DNA from: an uncultured Alphaproteobacteria bacterium
GTDB taxonomy: Bacteria > Pseudomonadota > Alphaproteobacteria > CAAHEQ01 > UBA3637
Assembly: GCA_947586835.1 (NCBI GenBank)
Contig: CANPXT010000002.1
Coordinates: forward strand, 23,009-87,008
Length of the DNA stretch: 64,000 bases
Direction of reading: 5' to 3'
The notes under the pieces are model-generated. The model did not search any database, was not told the DNA's origin, and saw only the letters and a program-made list of their open reading frames with translations. A program made the position numbers and the translations under genes. Positions 4,949 to 60,217 of the stretch are shown in pieces; position 1 is the stretch's first letter; each line of letters opens with the position of its first letter.

Positions 4949-5248
4949 TTTATTTTTATTTAATTGATTTAAAAGAATTTTTTCCAATTCTTCACTTGCC
5001 ACGTTTTGAAAGCAAACCTTTTTTTCGCGACTTGTTTCACCCGAAAGAATGAAAATATCACGTTTTTTAACATGAAAGACATCGGATAAAAAATCAATTA
5101 ACGCTTTATTTGCTTTTCCGTCAACCGCAGGCGCATGCAGGGCTATTTTTAAAGCCGAATTATTCCAAATGCCCTCAATGCCTGTCCGTTTGGCATTCGG
5201 CAACACCCGAACCGATAAAATAAACGCATTTTCATTTTTCTGCCACAT
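4943..5248 (-). CDS. DUF167 (YggU) family protein
   Basis: About 100 aa. VDGKANKALIDFLS and ILSGETSREKKV motifs are typical of YggU. Confidence 0.7.
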   Translation of the reverse strand: MWQKNENAFILSVRVLPNAKRTGIEGIWNNSALKIALHAPAVDGKANKALIDFLSDVFHVKKRDIFILSGETSREKKVCFQNVASEELEKILLNQLNKNKL

Positions 5249-5326
5249 TTGTCTGACCTTTTTTTTCCAATTTACACGAAATAAAGAAAAAAATCAACTC
5301 TATCTTTAAATTTAATTGTTTCACAA

Positions 5327-8256: not shown

Positions 8257-8724
8257 TCAATTACTTTCAAACACAATATTATTTCCCGAGTCGGAGCAAG
8301 AGGTTGTTTTTGAATACATCGTTGTCAACGTATCCGGTGCCTGCTCAATTAAGCGGTAACATGCTGTTCTCGGCACATCCGTTAAAGTAATCGTAAACCC
8401 GACCCAATCCCCGTTATTCACCGCTGCTACATTTAATTCACCACCCCATCGATTAGGAATTTTGTAGCCGGTTGAACAATCATGAACAACATCTTCCTCA
8501 CACATTAATTGGTTATCCAAACCCTCATAGTCGGGTGCCCATGAAAATATATCATTAATATCACGCGCCATTTGCTCAATTTCCATCAATGTGGCACTGA
8601 CACGAAAATAAGAATCAACATAAGCCATTGACGTAATGGCACCAACGGATATCACACCGATAATGGCGATAACGCCAAGCATTTCAACCATTGAACGACC
8701 TGATTCATTTGATCTTTGCATCAT
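8257..8724 (-). CDS. type IV pilin / pseudopilin-like protein (prepilin-type N-terminus)
   Basis: SG|RSMVEMLGVIAIIGVISVGA has Gly at -1, Glu at +5 and a hydrophobic helix. C-terminal Cys pair. GGAGG RBS before ATG at 8724 (the ORF track starts at 8739). Confidence 0.65.
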   Translation of the reverse strand: MMQRSNESGRSMVEMLGVIAIIGVISVGAITSMAYVDSYFRVSATLMEIEQMARDINDIFSWAPDYEGLDNQLMCEEDVVHDCSTGYKIPNRWGGELNVAAVNNGDWVGFTITLTDVPRTACYRLIEQAPDTLTTMYSKTTSCSDSGNNIVFESN

Positions 8725-8747
8725 ATTTTCCTCCAACAAGCATTAAG

Positions 8748-11220: not shown

Positions 11221-12603
11221 ATGAATCAGGGAAAAAACAATCCTTCGCTGTCACATGCCATTGCCCGCGGAAAATTGGAAGAAGTGCAGTATTTGATTCA
11301 TCACAATGACGTGAACACGCCTGATGAAAACGGCTTAACGCCTCTGATGGAAGCTGTTTATCATTCTCAAACGCCCGTCGGTCGAAAAATTTTTCATCTT
11401 ATTTTAGATCATCCCGATTTAAAAATTAATCAAACGGATGAAAACGGCTTGACGGCATTAAGCGTTGCCGTTCATGTGAATTGGGATATTGTGCCGGATT
11501 TATTAAAAAAAGGCGCTAATCCAAACGTTTATACCATGGCAAAATTACCCGGAAAATCAGAACCTTTCAGCCATGATGAAACGCCATGGCGTCAAATATC
11601 AGTATTAAGTTTTGCCGTTTGGAAAACTAATTATAAAATTGCCGTTTTGTTATTAAAACATGGGGCTGATGTCAACATGATCAGCTCACTGGATATTACG
11701 CCGCTTTCAATGGCAGCGCGAATCAATGATGATAAAATGGCAGATTACTTAATCAAAAAAGCAAATGCTCGTCTTGACACTCTCCCGACAAACTGGAGTG
11801 ATTTTACCAACAATTCACAAAAAGCGTGCCCGGTCGCATTAAGAAAAGCCCTTAAACACGGCAGTGACAAATGTGTGCAAAAATTACTGGAAGCCGGCTG
11901 TATGCTTCCCACAATCATTTATCGTTCCAATCATACTTTTGCAACACCTTTAACTTATGTATTGCAACAAATTCCGACACTTTATCAAAGATATATATAT
12001 TCTTCCGTTTTAATGAATGCGGCACCTGTCAATGATTATCTGCAAACTCTGCGTGTTTTAATGAAAGAAACGGCATATCATCCAGAAATGCAAGACTCGG
12101 AAGGCAGAACAGCTCTTTCTTACATTGCCGAAAAAGGATTAATTTCTTTTTGTGATGCAACATTAACACCGCAAACTGTTAATTTACCTGACAATAAAGG
12201 ATTAACCCCTCTTGCATATGCATTAATCAACAATCAACGGCCGGTTATTCATTATTTAATCGATCACGGTGCCAATTTAAACTGCTTGGTTCCGGATATT
12301 ACCTTATACAAAAAAATCATTCAGGATAATGAGCTGATTTACATTCCGGCCATTCAATTTGCCGTTAAAACACAAAAAACCGACATTGTGGAAAAAATGT
12401 TTGAAAAAGGGGTAAATTTATTGTGTTATCCCTCCGCTAATCAGCTGATATATGAATCTTTACACGCTCATCAGTCGGTGACTTTAACAAAAAAGCTTTT
12501 ATCGGGTTGGTATTATCAGAAAAAAACGGTTTCAACCCCTAAGCAATTAAATTTTTGGCAAAAAACAATAAAAGAACGTGTTAATCATCGAATGCGCACA
12601 TAA
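11221..12603 (+). CDS. ankyrin-repeat protein
   Basis: Repeated G(L)TPLM/A..A, LLKxGANPN and LIDHGANLN ankyrin signatures across 460 aa. GAGGAGG RBS. Confidence 0.75.
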   Translation: MNQGKNNPSLSHAIARGKLEEVQYLIHHNDVNTPDENGLTPLMEAVYHSQTPVGRKIFHLILDHPDLKINQTDENGLTALSVAVHVNWDIVPDLLKKGANPNVYTMAKLPGKSEPFSHDETPWRQISVLSFAVWKTNYKIAVLLLKHGADVNMISSLDITPLSMAARINDDKMADYLIKKANARLDTLPTNWSDFTNNSQKACPVALRKALKHGSDKCVQKLLEAGCMLPTIIYRSNHTFATPLTYVLQQIPTLYQRYIYSSVLMNAAPVNDYLQTLRVLMKETAYHPEMQDSEGRTALSYIAEKGLISFCDATLTPQTVNLPDNKGLTPLAYALINNQRPVIHYLIDHGANLNCLVPDITLYKKIIQDNELIYIPAIQFAVKTQKTDIVEKMFEKGVNLLCYPSANQLIYESLHAHQSVTLTKKLLSGWYYQKKTVSTPKQLNFWQKTIKERVNHRMRT

Positions 12604-22134: not shown

Positions 22135-22590
22135 TTATCTGCTATTATCCCTGCTATTATCCCTGTCCGCCACCAGAATGTCGTTGTTGTTCACAGACCG
22201 AGTATCCTCATCAGGAAGACTTATACCCACCTTTCCAAGTGTCTGTTTCAATTTCGCTTTGTAACCCGAAAGTTCTTCAAAGCGTTTATGTGCTGCCCTA
22301 ACATCATTTTCATATCCGTTACGCTTTGCATGTTCTTCTAAATCTTTCCAATTAACATCTTTCATTCGCTCCACAAACGAAGAAGAATGCTGATTGATAA
22401 TCTCTTTTCCATCAGCACTGTTCAGCGGAATGACAAGACTACCATTGTGCGGAACATTACCTTCAATCCTAGCCGGGTTACCGCTATGATCATAAGTAAT
22501 TGTGTATGTTGTTTTTTCATCTGTCTTAATTTGTTCTTTTTGAACACCGCCAAATACATTAAACTCTCTAAACTCTCTTTCATCAGTCAT
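22135..22590 (-). CDS. hypothetical protein (no signal peptide), gene next to repeat copy A
   Basis: 151-aa ORF with AAGGAG RBS and a clean terminator downstream. No motif recognised. Confidence 0.6.
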   Translation of the reverse strand: MTDEREFREFNVFGGVQKEQIKTDEKTTYTITYDHSGNPARIEGNVPHNGSLVIPLNSADGKEIINQHSSSFVERMKDVNWKDLEEHAKRNGYENDVRAAHKRFEELSGYKAKLKQTLGKVGISLPDEDTRSVNNNDILVADRDNSRDNSR

Positions 22591-22662
22591 TTAAAGACTC
22601 CTTTCGTTTACATGACTTTATTTTTATCACACAACAGTTTATATGACTTTTTCAGTATAAAT

Positions 22663-22818
22663 TAAACGTACGTTTTTTGCAACACTTTTTTCACTTTTCA
22701 TCAAAAAAATTTATTTCTATGGTTTTTTATTCATTTTCAATCGGTTATTTTTTTATTATTTTCAAAATGTTTGACCTTTTGAGCGTGCAAAAAAGTGCAC
22801 CAACTAGACCTACGTTTA
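22663..22818 (+). repeat. copy A of 157-bp IR-bounded AT-rich element (candidate invertible promoter or MITE)
   Basis: TAAACGTACGTTTTTTGCAACAC...GCGTGCAAAAAAGTGCACCAACTAGACCTACGTTTA. Homology to copies B and C ends exactly at the termini. The left end is 72 nt from the start of 22135..22590. Confidence 0.9.
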
Positions 22819-22994
22819 TTTTTGGCAACAACATGAAAATAAAAACAAATTAAAATAATTTTGAAAATTATGCTTAAATGTTGATTTTAAATAAAATATG
22901 TATAAAAAAACTGCTTGAAAGTCCCTATGACTTTCAAAAATTCAATTGCGAATCGCGTTAAAAAATTAAATCGAAAGCAACCGGAAAAATAACC

Positions 22995-54825: not shown

Positions 54826-57048
54826 ATGAGTATGGAGAACACCGAAAATATTCGCGAAACAAAACTGGCAGATGCGCTGTCGGAGCGTTACTTGGCTTAT
54901 GCCATGTCAACCATTGTGGCGCGCTCGCTTCCCGATGTGCGTGACGGCTTAAAACCTGTCCATCGCCGGTTGTTATATGCCATGCGTCAACTGAAATTGG
55001 ATCCGGTTTCGGGCTTTAAAAAATGTGCGCGCGTGGTCGGAGACGTCATCGGTAAATATCACCCGCACGGCGATACGTCCGTTTATGAAGCCATGGTGCG
55101 TTTGGCACAAGATTTTGCCGTGCGTTATCCGTTGGTGGATGGGCAAGGCAATTTCGGCAACATTGACGGTGATAAAGCCGCTGCCATGCGCTACACGGAA
55201 GCGCGCTTAACGGCAGTTGCCGTCGCACTGATGGACGGATTGGAAGATAATGCCGTTGACTTTGATAAAACATATGATGGCGAAGAAGAAGAACCTTCGG
55301 TTATGCCGGCCGCTTTTCCGAATTTATTGGCGAACGGTTCTTCGGGTATTGCCGTAGGCATGGCAACAAACATTCCGCCGCATAATGTCGGCGAAGTTTG
55401 CGATGCACTGTTGCATTTATTAAAAAATCCCGAAGCCTCTACGGCTGATTTAATTCAATACATTCAAGGACCTGATTTTCCAACCGGCGGTATTTTGGCG
55501 GAAAGTCGTCAAAATATCATTAAAGTTTATCAAGACGGGCGCGGAGCCATGAAAGTTCGCGCCAAATGGGAGAAAGAAGAGTTATCGCACGGGCAATATC
55601 AAATTGTCGTTACCGAAATTCCTTACGGCATTCAAAAATCTGATTTGGTTATGCGCATTGCAAAGTTGTTGTCCGAAAAAAAACTGCCTTTATTGGCTGA
55701 TATTCGTGATGAATCATCTGATGTTGTTCGTTTGGTGTTAGAACCGAAATCACGGACGGTTCTGCCCGAACAACTCATGGAACATTTATTTAAAAACACC
55801 GATTTGCAAATTAACTTCAATCTGAATATGAATGTGCTTGATGCCGATCATACCCCACGCGTCATGAGTTTAAAAGAAGTGTTGGTTGCTTATTTAAAAC
55901 ATCGCGATATTGTATTGGTACGTCGCTCGCAATATCGACTGGATAAAATTATGCACCGAATGGAGCTGTTGCAAGGCTTTTTAATCACTTATTTAAATCT
56001 GGATCGCGTGATTGAAATTATTCGGAACGAAGATGAACCCAAACCTCTGTTAATGAAAGAGTTTTCTTTAAGCGATATTCAGGCGGAAGCCATTTTGAAT
56101 ATGCGATTAAGAAGTTTGAGAAAACTGGAAGAAGCACAACTGAAAAACGAATATGAAACACTTTCAAATGAAAAGCAGGAATTAGAAAAGCTTTTAAATG
56201 ATACGGCGTTACGGATTAAAAAGCTGGCGGAAGAAATTAAAGTTATTCAAAAAGCATTCGGGCAAAAAACGGCACTCGGGGCACGGCGAACACAAGTGAC
56301 CGATGCGCCCGAAGAAGTGAAAATTTCCATTGAAGCCATGATTGAGCGTGAACCGATAACGGTTGTGTTATCAAAACAAGGCTGGATTCGTGCCGTGAAA
56401 GGGCACATTGAAATTTCTTCCGATTTAAAATTTAAAGAAGGTGATTCACTTAAAGCCGTGTTAAAAACATACACCACCGATAATATTTTAATTTTCACCA
56501 CAAACGGACGGTTTTACACGCTTTTAGGTAACAACATTGCGGGCGGTCGCGGGTTTGGTGAGCCGTTACGTCTGTCGGTCGATATTGCACAGGAAGCCGA
56601 TATTGTCGCACTTTTGCCATATGAAGCCGATCAAAAACTTTTGGTTGCCTCGCAAAACGGCAAAGGCTTTATTGTTGCCGCGTCCGATGTGATTGCGCAA
56701 ACACGCGCCGGTAAAATTATTCTTAATTTATCTGATAACGATAAAGCCATTCTTTGCAAACCCGTTACGGGTGATCATATTGCCGTTATCGGCACCAATC
56801 GCAAAATGATAGTGTTTAAAACGGAAGAAATTCCCGTTATGACACGTTCCAACGGCGTCATTCTTCAACGCTATCAGGAAGCCAAGCTTTCCGATGTTAA
56901 ATTCTTTAATTTGGTCGATGGTTTATCTTTCCCCTCGGGCAATGGCACACGCATTGAACGGAACATTGAATTTTGGCTGGCCAAACGGGCAACGGTGGGT
57001 AAAATTCCGCCGGTCGGATTTCCGCGCAGTAACAAATTCGGCAATTAA
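54826..57048 (+). CDS. parC: DNA topoisomerase IV subunit A
   Basis: [24 protein letters not shown], the active-site [10 protein letters not shown] tyrosine region and 740 aa. No GyrA-box seen. Confidence 0.9.
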
Positions 57049-57059
57049 AAATTGTTTAA
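57009..57059 (+). repeat. left arm of perfect 51-bp inverted repeat (last 13 codons, stop and 11 nt of parC)
   Basis: GCCGGTCGGATTTCCGCGCAGTAACAAATTCGGCAATTAAAAATTGTTTAA. The exact reverse complement is at 58733-58783 (checked base by base). Confidence 0.95.
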
Positions 57060-57189
57060 CGTAAAAAAGCCTGATAATGCTAAAATAAACATTTTTCAGC
57101 TTGATTCCGGTTGAAAAAGTGCGCAAGACTGTAATATGTGTTTTGAAGTGTGAAAATCTCTTTGTTTTTTTGGTGGAAGTTGCCCAAAA

Positions 57190-57346
57190 TAAACGTACGT
57201 TTTTTGCAACACTTTTTTTCATTTTTCATCAAAAAAATTTATTTTTCTTGTTTTTTATTCATTTTCAATCGGTTATTTTTTTCTTTTTTTCAAAATGTTT
57301 GTTTTTTCAAGCGTGCAAAAAAGTGCACCAACTAGACCTACGTTTA
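57190..57346 (+). repeat. copy B of 157-bp IR-bounded AT-rich element
   Basis: Same termini as copy A. The right end is 47 nt upstream of the pilin-EGF ATG (57394). Confidence 0.9.
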
Positions 57347-57393
57347 ATTTATACAATTTAGGAAAAAGTAAACGGGAGAAAGGATTCACGAAA

Positions 57394-58626
57394 ATGCAAG
57401 AAAATAAACAATTAAAACAACAACAAAATCAGGCACAAGACGGGCGCAGCATGGTTGAAATGCTGGGTGTTTTGGCTATTATCGGTGTGATTTCACTGGG
57501 GGGAATCGCAGGCTATAAAATGGCAATGGATCGGTATCAGGCGAATCAAATTGCGAATGAAATCAACTTAATGCGCAATGATATGAAGATGAAAGTAGCG
57601 CAAGGGGCTGATTTACTTTTAGGTGAGCCGTATGATTATAATGAGGAAGAAGACAAACTCGGGCATTTAAATTTTAATGAAAAATATGAAGTTGATTTCG
57701 GGTTTAATCATGACACGGAAGATCCGGAAGAAGAGGAAGAGACGGAAGAAGGATATTTCATCAGTGTATCAGGCATCTCAGAAGGCGCCTGCAAGTCGCT
57801 TGTGACGCTTTTAGATAGTATGGATGATACGGAAGATATAAAAGTAAATAATGTTGATTATTATGATACGGATTGGAACATATGCGCCTCAGAAAACAAA
57901 ATAAAAGTGGCATTTTCAACTCAAGATTTGGGTGTTATGAATGATGAGGAAGATGATTATGAAGATGAAGCGGTGACAACGGTAGCGACGCTTACCACTA
58001 CGACAGCGACGCCCACAACACCAACACCCACAACGCCGACAGCAACAACACCGACAGCAACAACGATAACAACCCCTGCCGTTACAGGAATAAGCAATTA
58101 CTGCAATAATCATGGTTCGGTGTCTTGGGAAGGTCCTAATTTTTTATGTTATTGCTACGATGGTTATGGTGGCACTTATTGTGAAACAGCTAATAAATGC
58201 AACGGACATGGCACGTGGTTTAATAGAAGTGACGGCACAGGTTATTGCTCTTGCTCAGGTAGATATGGTGGCACTTATTGTAACGAATCCAATAAATGCA
58301 ACGGACATGGCACGTGGAAAAATAACAGTGACAGCACAGGTTACTGCTATTGCTCAGATGGCTATGGTGGCACTTATTGTAACGAATCCAATAAATGCAA
58401 CCATGGCTACTGGAAAAATAATAGTGATGGCACAGGTTACTGCTCTTGCTACGGTAGTTATGGCGGCACTTATTGTAACGAATCCAATAAATGCAATGGA
58501 CATGGCACGTGGTATAATCATACCGGTAAAGGTTATTGCTCTTGCGTAGGTGGCTATGGTGGCACTTATTGTGAAGAAACTCTGTTTACAACAACGATTG
58601 AACCACCCACTACTGAAAATCGTTGA
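57394..58626 (+). CDS. pilin-like protein fused to Thr/Pro-rich linker and five EGF-like Cys-rich modules
   Basis: ATG at 57394 after a GGGAGAAAGGA RBS. DG|RSMVEMLGVLAIIGVISLGG prepilin-type N-terminus (Glu +5). TTTTATPTTPTPTTPTATTPTATT linker. Five modules of CNGHG...C.C..GYGGTYC. Confidence 0.75.
   Translation: MQENKQLKQQQNQAQDGRSMVEMLGVLAIIGVISLGGIAGYKMAMDRYQANQIANEINLMRNDMKMKVAQGADLLLGEPYDYNEEEDKLGHLNFNEKYEVDFGFNHDTEDPEEEEETEEGYFISVSGISEGACKSLVTLLDSMDDTEDIKVNNVDYYDTDWNICASENKIKVAFSTQDLGVMNDEEDDYEDEAVTTVATLTTTTATPTTPTPTTPTATTPTATTITTPAVTGISNYCNNHGSVSWEGPNFLCYCYDGYGGTYCETANKCNGHGTWFNRSDGTGYCSCSGRYGGTYCNESNKCNGHGTWKNNSDSTGYCYCSDGYGGTYCNESNKCNHGYWKNNSDGTGYCSCYGSYGGTYCNESNKCNGHGTWYNHTGKGYCSCVGGYGGTYCEETLFTTTIEPPTTENR
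58102..58572 (+). repeat. coding tandem repeats (96-99 bp period) encoding EGF-like modules
   Basis: The 32-mer GGCACTTATTGTAACGAATCCAATAAATGCAA is exact at 58270, 58369 and 58465. Five protein modules. Confidence 0.9.
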
Positions 58627-58732
58627 TTTTAAAGCTGTTTGTTAACAATCGGGCGAGCGGAATTAATCCCCTCGCTCCGGTTCGTTGCTTTAAAAATATC
58701 TCTGAATACGGCTTAAAACAAGCTTTTTTGCT

Positions 58733-58783
58733 TTAAACAATTTTTAATTGCCGAATTTGTTACTGCGCGGAAATCCGACCGGC
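58733..58783 (-). repeat. right arm of perfect 51-bp inverted repeat
   Basis: TTAAACAATTTTTAATTGCCGAATTTGTTACTGCGCGGAAATCCGACCGGC is the reverse complement of 57009-57059. Confidence 0.95.
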
Positions 58784-58880
58784 AGGATATGAAGATTCCG
58801 TTCAATCCCAAAGGAAATAAAGCCGATAATAAAGATATGGAAAAATAATTTTCGGATATATCCGGTTTTAAAGAAAGATA
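58744..58880 (-). pseudogene. decayed inverted copy of the parC 3' end
   Basis: The minus-strand frame reads ...[26 protein letters not shown], compared with ParC ...[42 protein letters not shown]. The last 51 bp are identical and the upstream part is degenerate with a deletion. Confidence 0.5.
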
Positions 58881-58943: not shown

Positions 58944-59999
58944 TTAAGCGTTTTCGGCTTGAGAACGACTCACAGTCGATTGAGTCTTCTGCTCATTCAC
59001 CTGTTGCGCATTTTGTGATAACGTTGCATTTTGAGTTTCCGCTTCGTTGTGCGCTTCATTGTCTGAATGATCAGAAAGCTTTTGAGAAAGCCCTTTTGCT
59101 TTTATTTCCGCTAACTCTTTTTGAGCTTTTTCAAGTGAATTAATAACAGCTTTTCTATCATCAACGGTCAAATTTTCAGGATTAAAAATAGCAAATTCGG
59201 CTTTACTGGTTTTAATGCCGTTATGTTCTCCGTCATCTTTTCTTTCAAAAAACTTTTCCAACGACATACCGGGCAATTCCATATAAGAGGCATAAATTAA
59301 ACTTGCACCTCTCCATTTTGACCCTTCCGACTCCTTATCATTTTGTACAAGATCTTTCAGAGTGTTTAAAGCCTCTTCTGCTGCTTTGGGATCTTTTTTC
59401 AATTCTTCCCAGCTTTTAATGCCCGAAAAGGCGCCCGGAATAATGCGATCACCATCACGATATCCGTAAAGAAATTTATATGCATTCATTCGATCTTCGG
59501 AAGTTTCTTTTAAATTGGTGCGTCTTTTGCCGACGACAGAATCGGCAAAAGAAACTGTGGCAACCGCACCACCTACCCATCCGCCAAGGTAAGTTGTTGC
59601 AAGTCTTACGCCGCTCCGTGCACTATAACCGCCCAAAGCTTTTGATACCTTTGCGGCAACACCCGGTATTTTCTTAGCTGCGATATTCCCGGCAACACCA
59701 CCGGAAACCATGCCGCCCAAACCACCTAAAAGCGCGTCATCTAACCCGTCCAAAACATCTGATCCGGTCGGAATCATGTTCTTGGCAACCGTTGAATAAG
59801 GAACAGCTTGCTGATCTTTCGGAATAACAACGTTTTCTCTTTTGGTGTATAAATGACTCGTACCTAAATCAAGTGGTGGCATCGGCTTGGTATAATCAAT
59901 ATTTTCAAATTGTTCATCGGTTATGTTCGTTACTCTTTTCAGTAACAATTCAACCGCCCGTTCTCCGGCATTTGTTTGATCTTTCAATCCATCTAACAT
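58944..59999 (-). CDS. hypothetical protein with glycine-zipper-like hydrophobic segment
   Basis: 351-aa ORF, AAGGAG RBS. LLGGLGGMVSGGVAGNIAA and YLGGWVGGAVATV segments. Charged coiled-coil C-terminus. No signal peptide. Confidence 0.65.
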   Translation of the reverse strand: MLDGLKDQTNAGERAVELLLKRVTNITDEQFENIDYTKPMPPLDLGTSHLYTKRENVVIPKDQQAVPYSTVAKNMIPTGSDVLDGLDDALLGGLGGMVSGGVAGNIAAKKIPGVAAKVSKALGGYSARSGVRLATTYLGGWVGGAVATVSFADSVVGKRRTNLKETSEDRMNAYKFLYGYRDGDRIIPGAFSGIKSWEELKKDPKAAEEALNTLKDLVQNDKESEGSKWRGASLIYASYMELPGMSLEKFFERKDDGEHNGIKTSKAEFAIFNPENLTVDDRKAVINSLEKAQKELAEIKAKGLSQKLSDHSDNEAHNEAETQNATLSQNAQQVNEQKTQSTVSRSQAENA

Positions 60000-60060: not shown

Positions 60061-60217
60061 TAAACGTAGGTCTAGTTGGTGCACTTTTTTGCACGCTTAA
60101 AAGGATAAACATTTTGAAAACAATAAAAAAATAACCGATTGAAAATGAACAAAAAACAAGAAAAATAAATTTTTTTGATGAAAAGTGAAAAAAAGTGTTG
60201 CAAAAAACGTACGTTTA
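60061..60217 (-). repeat. copy C of 157-bp IR-bounded AT-rich element (reverse orientation)
   Basis: Reverse complement of copies A and B. The same end as in copy B faces the gene, 61 nt upstream of the ATG at 59999. Confidence 0.9.

Follow-up and report, generated by a model that had tools for sequence, protein, structure and literature searches.

Probable crossover sites of an Mpi-type invertible switch upstream of pilin-like and other genes in an uncultured gut alphaproteobacterium

The window (the whole stretch of 64 kb of alphaproteobacterial DNA that was analysed) contains three copies of a short repeat, hereafter the element, which we call A, B and C. They are separated by 34.5 kb and 2.7 kb, show 92-95% mutual identity and lie in unrelated flanks. 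The two ends of the element can be told apart and are named left (L) and right (R). The copies and the genes that matter to the argument are, in order along the window:

8257-8739, minus strand: 160-aa protein resembling type IVb major pilins, similar to BfpA and PilS
22135-22590, minus strand: 151-aa protein without Pfam family, starting 72 nt away from the L end of copy A
22663-22820, plus strand: element copy A, with the TA of the L site at 22669-22670 and that of the R site at 22811-22812; the 151-aa gene is faced by the L end
57190-57346, plus strand: element copy B, the copy flagged in the preliminary description, with the L site at 57190-57212, its TA at 57196-57197 and the TA of the R site at 57339-57340
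57394-58626, plus strand: 410-aa pilin-like protein, whose ATG lies 47 nt past the R end of copy B
58944-59999, minus strand: 351-aa protein without Pfam family, 61 nt from the R end of copy C
60061-60217, minus strand: element copy C, with the TA of the R site at 60067-60068 and that of the L site at 60210-60211; the 351-aa gene is faced by the R end

The 410-aa protein begins like a type IV prepilin (GRSMVEMLGVLAIIGVISLGG), is weakly similar to the type IVb pilin TcpA and ends in EGF-like, Cys-rich repeats of 33 aa. At the DNA level these appear at 58108-58578 as four to five tandem repeats of 96-99 nt, each corresponding to one EGF-like module (..CNGHGTW.N.SDGTGYCSC..YGGTYCNESNK), and several assemblies break within this gene. 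Between copy B and the gene there is a -10-like hexamer, TATACA, at 57350-57355. The 351-aa protein resembles the products of 366- and 379-aa genes in two sister species, where the orientations of the element are opposite. On its other side copy A faces, with the R end, just the 3' end of a convergent flavodoxin gene. The 160-aa pilin-like gene has no element in the window, while its short-pilin homologues in the sister species have one 106-125 nt upstream.

The surroundings of copy B hold a further repeat. Positions 57004-57073 and 58719-58788 form a 70-nt inverted repeat (93% complementary) made up of the final 45 nt of parC and the 25 nt that follow it, duplicated in inverted orientation just past the pilin-like gene. 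Copy B and this gene (57074-58718) are thus bracketed by inverted repeats, an arrangement that a cassette insertion or a larger inversion could have left behind.

The left end of copy B, TAAACGTACGTTTTTTGCAACAC at 57190-57212, includes AAACGTACGT (57191-57200), which fits the string ARACGTWCGT at 10 of 10 positions, and the right end, read on the minus strand, is AAACGTAGGT (57336-57345), with a fit of 9 of 10. Both scores had been given in the preliminary description and were recovered at exactly these coordinates; all three copies in the window have the same pair of scores, 10 of 10 at the left end and 9 of 10 at the right. The search of the DNA for this string that had also been proposed was uninformative: allowing one mismatch at most, the bare 10-mer has 23 matches in the 64-kb window against 18.65 expected, a number reached in 24 of 100 shuffles, so that it is not enriched and alone proves nothing. 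The 18-mer ACGTACGTTTTTTGCAAC occurs exactly three times in the window (0.25 expected; none of 100 shuffles reached three), with no additional match in the window even when up to three mismatches were allowed, and each of its occurrences is the left end of a sharply bounded, very T-rich repeat of about 157 nt, the element.

The two ends are built alike. The left one holds a perfect 12-nt palindrome with TA at its centre (AAACGTACGTTT), and the right one, AGACC-TA-CGTTT, has the same TA centre; from one TA to the other there are 142-143 nt in each copy of the window. The inner half-site of copy B is CGTTTTTTGCAACAC on the left. On the right it is degenerate and reads GGTCTAGTTGGTGCAC on the minus strand, as against CCTTTAATGCAACGC, and this degenerate form is found in all three window copies.

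A scan with the 20-mer ARACGTWCGTTTTTTGCAAC, an extended left end, over one genome per species (185,579 species) returned 81 loci. Among the 80 listed, 77 are in MAGs from the rabbit gut ("Lapin"), nearly all of them labelled Alphaproteobacteria; CANQKV, CANQUX, CANREI and CANRJO are four of these genomes. The other rabbit-gut matches are contigs of 2.7-12 kb binned as Akkermansia (L026, L029, L044 and L077, in CANQYL) or as Gastranaerophilales (L020, in CANQML). They have the same genes aboard and are most likely binning contamination of the rabbit-gut MAGs. The window is 88-91% identical to loci of CANQKV (KV) and CANQUX (UX), which indicates that it comes from a sister species of these.

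The scanned loci contain 94 near-full-length elements, and from three sister genomes 38, 22 and 19 were recovered. Together with the three copies of the window these numbers agree with the global, many-site system that had been suspected from the window. Where the cores could be placed (about 70 copies), the spacing from TA to TA is 142-146 nt, and the copies of the sister species (about 70) fit ARACGTWCGT at 9-10 of 10 positions at both ends. Conservation among copies is about 90-99% in the sites and 50-80% in the interior. The inner left half-site, CGTTTTTTGCAACAC, is almost invariant in about 90 copies; the inner right one is CCTTTAATGCAACGC, or CGTTTTTTGCAACGC in some KV copies, or GGTCTAGTTGGTGCAC in the type found in the window. 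The outer half-site is CGTTTAATT on the gene side, followed by TATACA, TATGCT or TATACT, and CGTTTTTTTGATGCA or CGTTTAATTTGTGCAACAC on the distal side.

A pilin-like gene lies within 200 nt of the R end, usually at 1-40 nt, in 67 of the 94 elements, and the products of these genes have 400-850 aa and the motif ..QSGRSMVEMLGVLAIIGVLSIGG.. in common. Seven elements have a different gene at the R end and five have a gene at the L end only. Among the non-pilin genes preceded by an element are those of the 151-aa and 351-aa proteins, of a glycosyltransferase-like protein and of a small secreted protein. None of the 94 elements has a UpxY gene beside it in its gene context, in keeping with the earlier proposal that pilin-like and other accessory genes are the targets here instead of capsule loci.

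Two of the sister loci are arranged in other ways. At one locus, present in two sister species, the element stands between divergent genes (5096-5256 of contig L030 and 5552-5712 of contig L064), with the gene of a 152-aa pilin about 120 nt from the R end and that of a 350-aa secreted protein 41 nt from the L end; inversion there could toggle between the two. On contig L073 (4450-4690) a partial element, consisting of the R portion, abuts the L site of a full element and creates a hybrid Rin-TA-Lin junction, which looks like the product of recombination between the sites of different elements.

That an Mpi-like system operates in an alphaproteobacterium, as the preliminary description supposed, was supported in the sister species and not in the window. 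A tblastn search of the 64-kb window for serine or tyrosine recombinases, with Hin, XerD and FimB queries, gave only noise. Two sister species, however, encode Mpi-family recombinases next to an element:

CANREI, contig L027, 4218-4811: 197-aa recombinase, 290 nt upstream of an element at 5104-5266, which is followed by a pilin-like gene
CANQUX, contig L075, 977-1606: 209-aa recombinase, followed by a spacer of about 760 nt, an element and a pilin-like gene

These two enzymes are 54% identical to each other and score 283 bits (L027) and 289 bits (L075) with NF009949, the NCBIfam model "master DNA invertase Mpi family serine-type recombinase", which has a curated cut-off of 272. Both have Resolvase and HTH domains and keep the serine motif YIR(V/I)STD, and their closest solved structures are the Gin invertase (E 7e-12) and gamma-delta resolvase. 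Thousands of Mpi-family proteins from gut metagenomes share about 60% identity with them; one of these proteins belongs to an Alphaproteobacteria MAG and had already received the Mpi-family name from NCBI. No Mpi gene could be tied to the window species: homologues of the UX enzyme (88-89% identity) are found on contigs of 1-4 kb in the same ENA assembly series (ERZ2724xxxx accessions), but in other samples.

In another strain (contig L103, features at 544-703, 837-1346, 1470-1626 and 1796-2425) the element lies between a short pilin gene, 123 nt away at the L side, and the Mpi-family recombinase gene itself, 170 nt away at the R side, so that the expression of the invertase gene might be switch-dependent too. 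The spacer between recombinase and element is filled by GC-rich palindromic repeats (TTTTCGGCGGGAAGTGC...GCGCGGTGTGCCGAAAAT) at 480-800 of L075 and 4860-5000 of L027. These repeats are a separate family and recur near other copies of the element as short spurious ORFs starting with MSSRK. Two more recombinases, P0005 and P0006 (64-68% identical), were considered and placed outside the system: they come from genomes of 32% GC, have restriction-modification neighbours and no such sites nearby.

We take the string ARACGTWCGT, introduced in the preliminary description, to be the core of the inverted repeats of the Mpi-type invertible promoters of Bacteroides fragilis. The string itself was not found in the literature searched, and those papers in it that mention Mpi state no consensus. 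A metagenome scan with ACGWACGTTTTTTGMAACA gave at least 120 loci, and among the matches listed most are human-gut contigs. On one of these (L115) the site pair TGTTTCAAAAAACG-TT-CGTCTTTTGGAACAC ... GTGTTTATAAACG-AA-CGTTTTTTGAAACAC adjoins a UpxY-family antiterminator gene (166 bits against a cut-off of 100) with a capsule-type operon behind it. In the UpxY-linked regions of human-gut contigs the sites read TGTTTCAAAAAACG-TT/TA-CGTCTTTTGGAACAC, some with a TA centre as in the rabbit-gut elements. These sites fit ARACGTWCGT, and the consensus thereby gains support. The likeness goes beyond the core, since the half-site CGTTTTTTGAAACAC of the UpxY loci is identical to the alphaproteobacterial half-site CGTTTTTTGCAACAC at 14 of 15 positions, and the sites of both groups are quasi-palindromes around TA or TT.

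The UpxY-linked loci can also be seen in both orientations among assemblies (L115 against L116, L117 and L217; L147 against L156). In the flipped loci the outer arms are constant and the inner arms are swapped, which locates the exchange at the central dinucleotide. These loci are a ready-made positive control for the detection of Mpi-type inversion at the level of consensus assemblies.

We think it probable that the flagged ends of copy B are the crossover sites of an Mpi-type invertible switch (inverton) constituted by this element. Judging by the sequences, the lineage would possess the defining molecular features of the Mpi system, namely the recombinase family, the site type and the multiplicity of sites, with targets that differ. 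For the lineage this interpretation is supported by the architecture of the sites, their copy number and gene context, the recombinase family of the sister species, the exchange point at TA and the identity of the site type with that of Bacteroidales; for the genome of the window it would hold by extension.

A probable trace of inversion can be seen in the comparison of the copies. With both copies anchored on their gene, copy A matches copy B at 199 of 235 positions when the segment between the TAs of B is inverted, and at 148 of 235 when B is taken as it stands. The polarity of the flanks is kept: the distal flank is GTTGCCAAAAATAAACG in one and GTTGCCCAAAATAAACG in the other, and the proximal flank is CGTTTAATTTATAC in both. 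Copy A thus appears to be copy B with the segment between the central TAs inverted, and the apparent exchange point is the TA. The 17-nt junction of the 151-aa gene, TACGTTTAATTTATACT, recurs unchanged in KV as the R-side junction of the 303-aa homologue, and the orthologous 366/379-aa gene adjoins the R end of the element in KV and the L end in UX. The orientations of copies A and B and of the element at the 366/379-aa gene would fit either inversion or exchange between dispersed sites, in both cases at the TA centre.

Opposite orientations are apparent between copies A and B, but were not seen among consensus assemblies of the same place. The readable ENA/Logan contigs that span the window copies (four for C, one for B and two for A) all have the orientation of the window, a weak test as similar places are collapsed in them. 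In the comparison across species, none of the 313 element pairs with both 350-nt flanks homologous is flipped. It follows that the flipped cases are those at non-pilin or short-pilin genes, where flank similarity is short only; such cases could date from long ago, or could have arisen by exchange between dispersed sites and not by local inversion. The uniform orientation of the consensus fits switches that are OFF in most cells, and fits rare or extinct inversion equally well. One contig of the window species deserves mention here, the 12.5-kb NODE_1593 of ERZ27249446 (L001), which ends exactly at 57197, the A of the TA in the left site of copy B. Repeat-induced breaks in the MAGs of the sister species fall about 46-72 nt into the element, and L001 is alone among the contig ends in stopping on the TA core. 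An orientation branch would fall at this very place, and the contig end is only a hint of mixed orientations in that sample.

The alternative that survives best takes the copies as fossil or locked switches, that is, descendants of Mpi-type invertons that recombined once and are now fixed upstream regions in the window species. It is in line with the 64-kb window having no recombinase, with the degeneracy of the inner R half-site in copies A, B and C alike, and with the single orientation of every readable assembly and of 313 of 313 flank-matched pairs. Several observations nevertheless make it an unlikely account. About 90 copies have an invariant L site, conservation is far higher in the site cores than in the interior, and intact Mpi-family genes stand beside elements in the closest sister species. 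The R site of the window type is common to copies A and B, which are nevertheless flipped with respect to each other, so that this site would have recombined since the type arose. Finally, a consensus that is OFF at every locus is also what a one-of-many switch predicts.

Much less credible is a MITE-like mobile element, with terminal inverted repeats and an outward promoter, that moved by transposition, in one orientation or the other, to positions upstream of many genes. The element is short, AT-rich, multicopy and sharply bounded, has terminal inverted repeats, and assemblies break at its copies, all of which a MITE would explain. But no target-site duplication is visible at its ends, the distance to the start codons is fixed (1-40 nt) and the gene-side flank is conserved. 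Moreover, transposition does not predict that the flip between A and B maps to the central TA with intact flank polarity, and the ends are of the same type as proven serine-invertase sites, with an Mpi-family invertase and no transposase adjacent. An ordinary promoter or operator of a paralogous gene family, with repeats that bind a transcription factor and DNA that is not rearranged, is equally hard to credit, since most copies do precede paralogous pilin-like genes with conserved flanks, as gene duplication would give, but unrelated genes are preceded as well (151-aa, 351-aa, glycosyltransferase-like and small secreted), several of these unrelated genes have the element in the opposite orientation, and the neighbouring Mpi-family recombinase and the identity with Bacteroidales crossover sites are left unexplained.

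If the element is an Mpi-type switch, each site, a quasi-palindrome on TA with half-sites CGTTTWWTG.AAC, would be bound by an invertase dimer. The window species would carry the gene of this Mpi-family serine invertase in another part of its genome; in sister species the gene stands beside an element. Two sites would pair, the invertase would cut at the central TA, and the segment of about 143 bp between them would be rotated. One enzyme acting in trans would presumably serve all dispersed copies, of which the window has three and each sister genome yielded 19-38. Most copies have, 1-40 nt downstream, a gene for a type IVb-pilin-like, Cys-rich surface protein. Dispersed sites may also recombine with one another and so reshuffle the pairings of genes and switches. 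That inversion takes place today in the window species, and which orientation is ON and which OFF, are points that we infer.

How orientation could act on transcription is suggested by the promoter-like sites of the window:

22654-22682, minus strand: candidate junction promoter TTGCAA-N17-TATACT, directed toward the 151-aa gene (consensus scan, match at chance level per region)
57241-57268, minus strand: internal promoter-like site TTGAAA-N16-AAAAAT of copy B, pointing out of the L end and away from the pilin-like gene
60139-60166, plus strand: the equivalent internal promoter-like site of copy C, at chance level per region

In the candidate junction promoter of copy A the -35 lies within the invertible segment, in the inner half of the L site, and the -10 lies in the fixed flank on the gene side. 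The scan found TTGCAA-17-TATACT only at copy A, whose L end is proximal, with a match at chance level per region; copies B and C have ACCAAC at the position equivalent to this -35, and the sole promoter-like site that the consensus scans gave for them, at chance level per region, points away from the gene. Because the TTGCAA of the L half-site falls 17 nt from a fixed TATAnT-like -10, and because the internal site also points out of the L end, the gene would be ON when the L end (CGTTTTTTGCAACAC) adjoins it, an assignment that we regard as evenly balanced. On this assignment copy A would be ON, for the 151-aa gene, and copies B and C would be OFF, and nearly all pilin-like genes would be OFF in the population consensus, as expected of one-of-many expression. 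The majority type of element has a TTGCAW -35 with correct spacing at both ends, so that a split-promoter switch would be clean only for the window type; in the majority type the difference between ON and OFF would come from an upstream A-tract or from the internal site. The complete scheme, in which a horizontally acquired Mpi-family invertase would run a one-of-many lottery over 20-40 type IVb-pilin-like adhesin genes by means of a split promoter (the -35 moves and the -10 stays), is put forward tentatively, and we would sooner expect it to fail in some part than to hold throughout.

The main known examples of a master invertase in control of many promoters come from Bacteroides, where such control shapes the diversity of capsules and the colonisation of the gut. 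With the capsule invertons of B. fragilis and other Bacteroidales the system of the rabbit-gut lineage shares a small serine recombinase of NF009949 (here in the sister species), many dispersed quasi-palindromic sites (central TW, fit to ARACGTWCGT, half-site 14/15), and a short segment just upstream of genes for surface structures, of 143 nt here and roughly 130-205 nt in Bacteroidales. The host is different, an uncultured gut alphaproteobacterium whose relatives' enzymes share only about 60% identity with most of the family, and so are the targets, type IVb-pilin-like Cys-rich proteins and small proteins here and UpxY/UpxZ capsule operons there. The long conserved half-sites lie inside the segment here and outside it in the Bacteroidales loci examined, the promoter here may be split across the crossover site, and inversion here is something we infer from sequence. 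The number of sites recovered reaches 38 per genome, whereas 13 have been reported in B. fragilis (PMC4747536). That Mpi-family recombinases are annotated by NCBI in Alphaproteobacteria MAGs is already known; a description of an Mpi-type switch on alphaproteobacterial pilin-like genes was not found in the literature searched.

Other inversion systems resemble the present one in part. Hin, Gin, Cin and Pin, the family of the Salmonella flagellar switch and of the tail-fibre switches of phages Mu and P1, require a Fis-bound enhancer. They too are serine invertases of about 190-200 aa acting on palindromic crossover sites with a 2-bp centre, and Gin is the nearest structure; they differ in that they invert one adjacent segment of about 1-4 kb, whereas here there are many segments of 143 bp far from the enzyme gene. 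A local switch of the Hin/Gin type was discarded for the elements, the copies being many and short and most of them far from any recombinase gene. The R64 shufflon (Rci, PilV tip adhesins) likewise uses site-specific inversion to vary the part of a type IVb pilus that adheres, and the short pilin here resembles PilS as well as BfpA. There, however, a tyrosine recombinase swaps C-terminal coding segments in one gene, while here a serine recombinase would act on whole genes through promoter inversion. In the E. coli fimS switch (FimB/FimE), too, a short promoter element that can invert lies immediately before a pilus or fimbrial gene and gives ON/OFF phase variation, as proposed for the elements; fimS differs in its tyrosine recombinases, its single locus, its 9-bp repeats and in having the whole promoter inside a segment of 314 bp.

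The Mpi enzyme family and nearly the same DNA site are hence met in another phylum, apparently coupled to Cys-rich, pilus-like surface proteins of a very large family in place of capsules. Should the switches prove active, the Mpi module would amount to a portable toolkit, crossing phyla, for surface variation of gut bacteria, and a poorly known uncultured lineage of Alphaproteobacteria would gain a clear strategy of host interaction. Active switches would also offer a compact 143-bp substrate for a serine invertase at dozens of sites with palindromic TA cores, and a half-site embedded in the -35 hexamer would provide a simple way of building promoters gated by a recombinase.

Two other repeats of the window lie apart from the elements. 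At 1144-1313 tandem repeats of 15 nt encode a low-complexity stretch rich in Q, A and P in a 565-aa secreted protein (25-1722). A 460-aa ankyrin-repeat protein is encoded at 11221-12603, with internal 114-nt repeats at 11323-11475; such a protein is unusual in free-living bacteria and fits a host-associated lifestyle.
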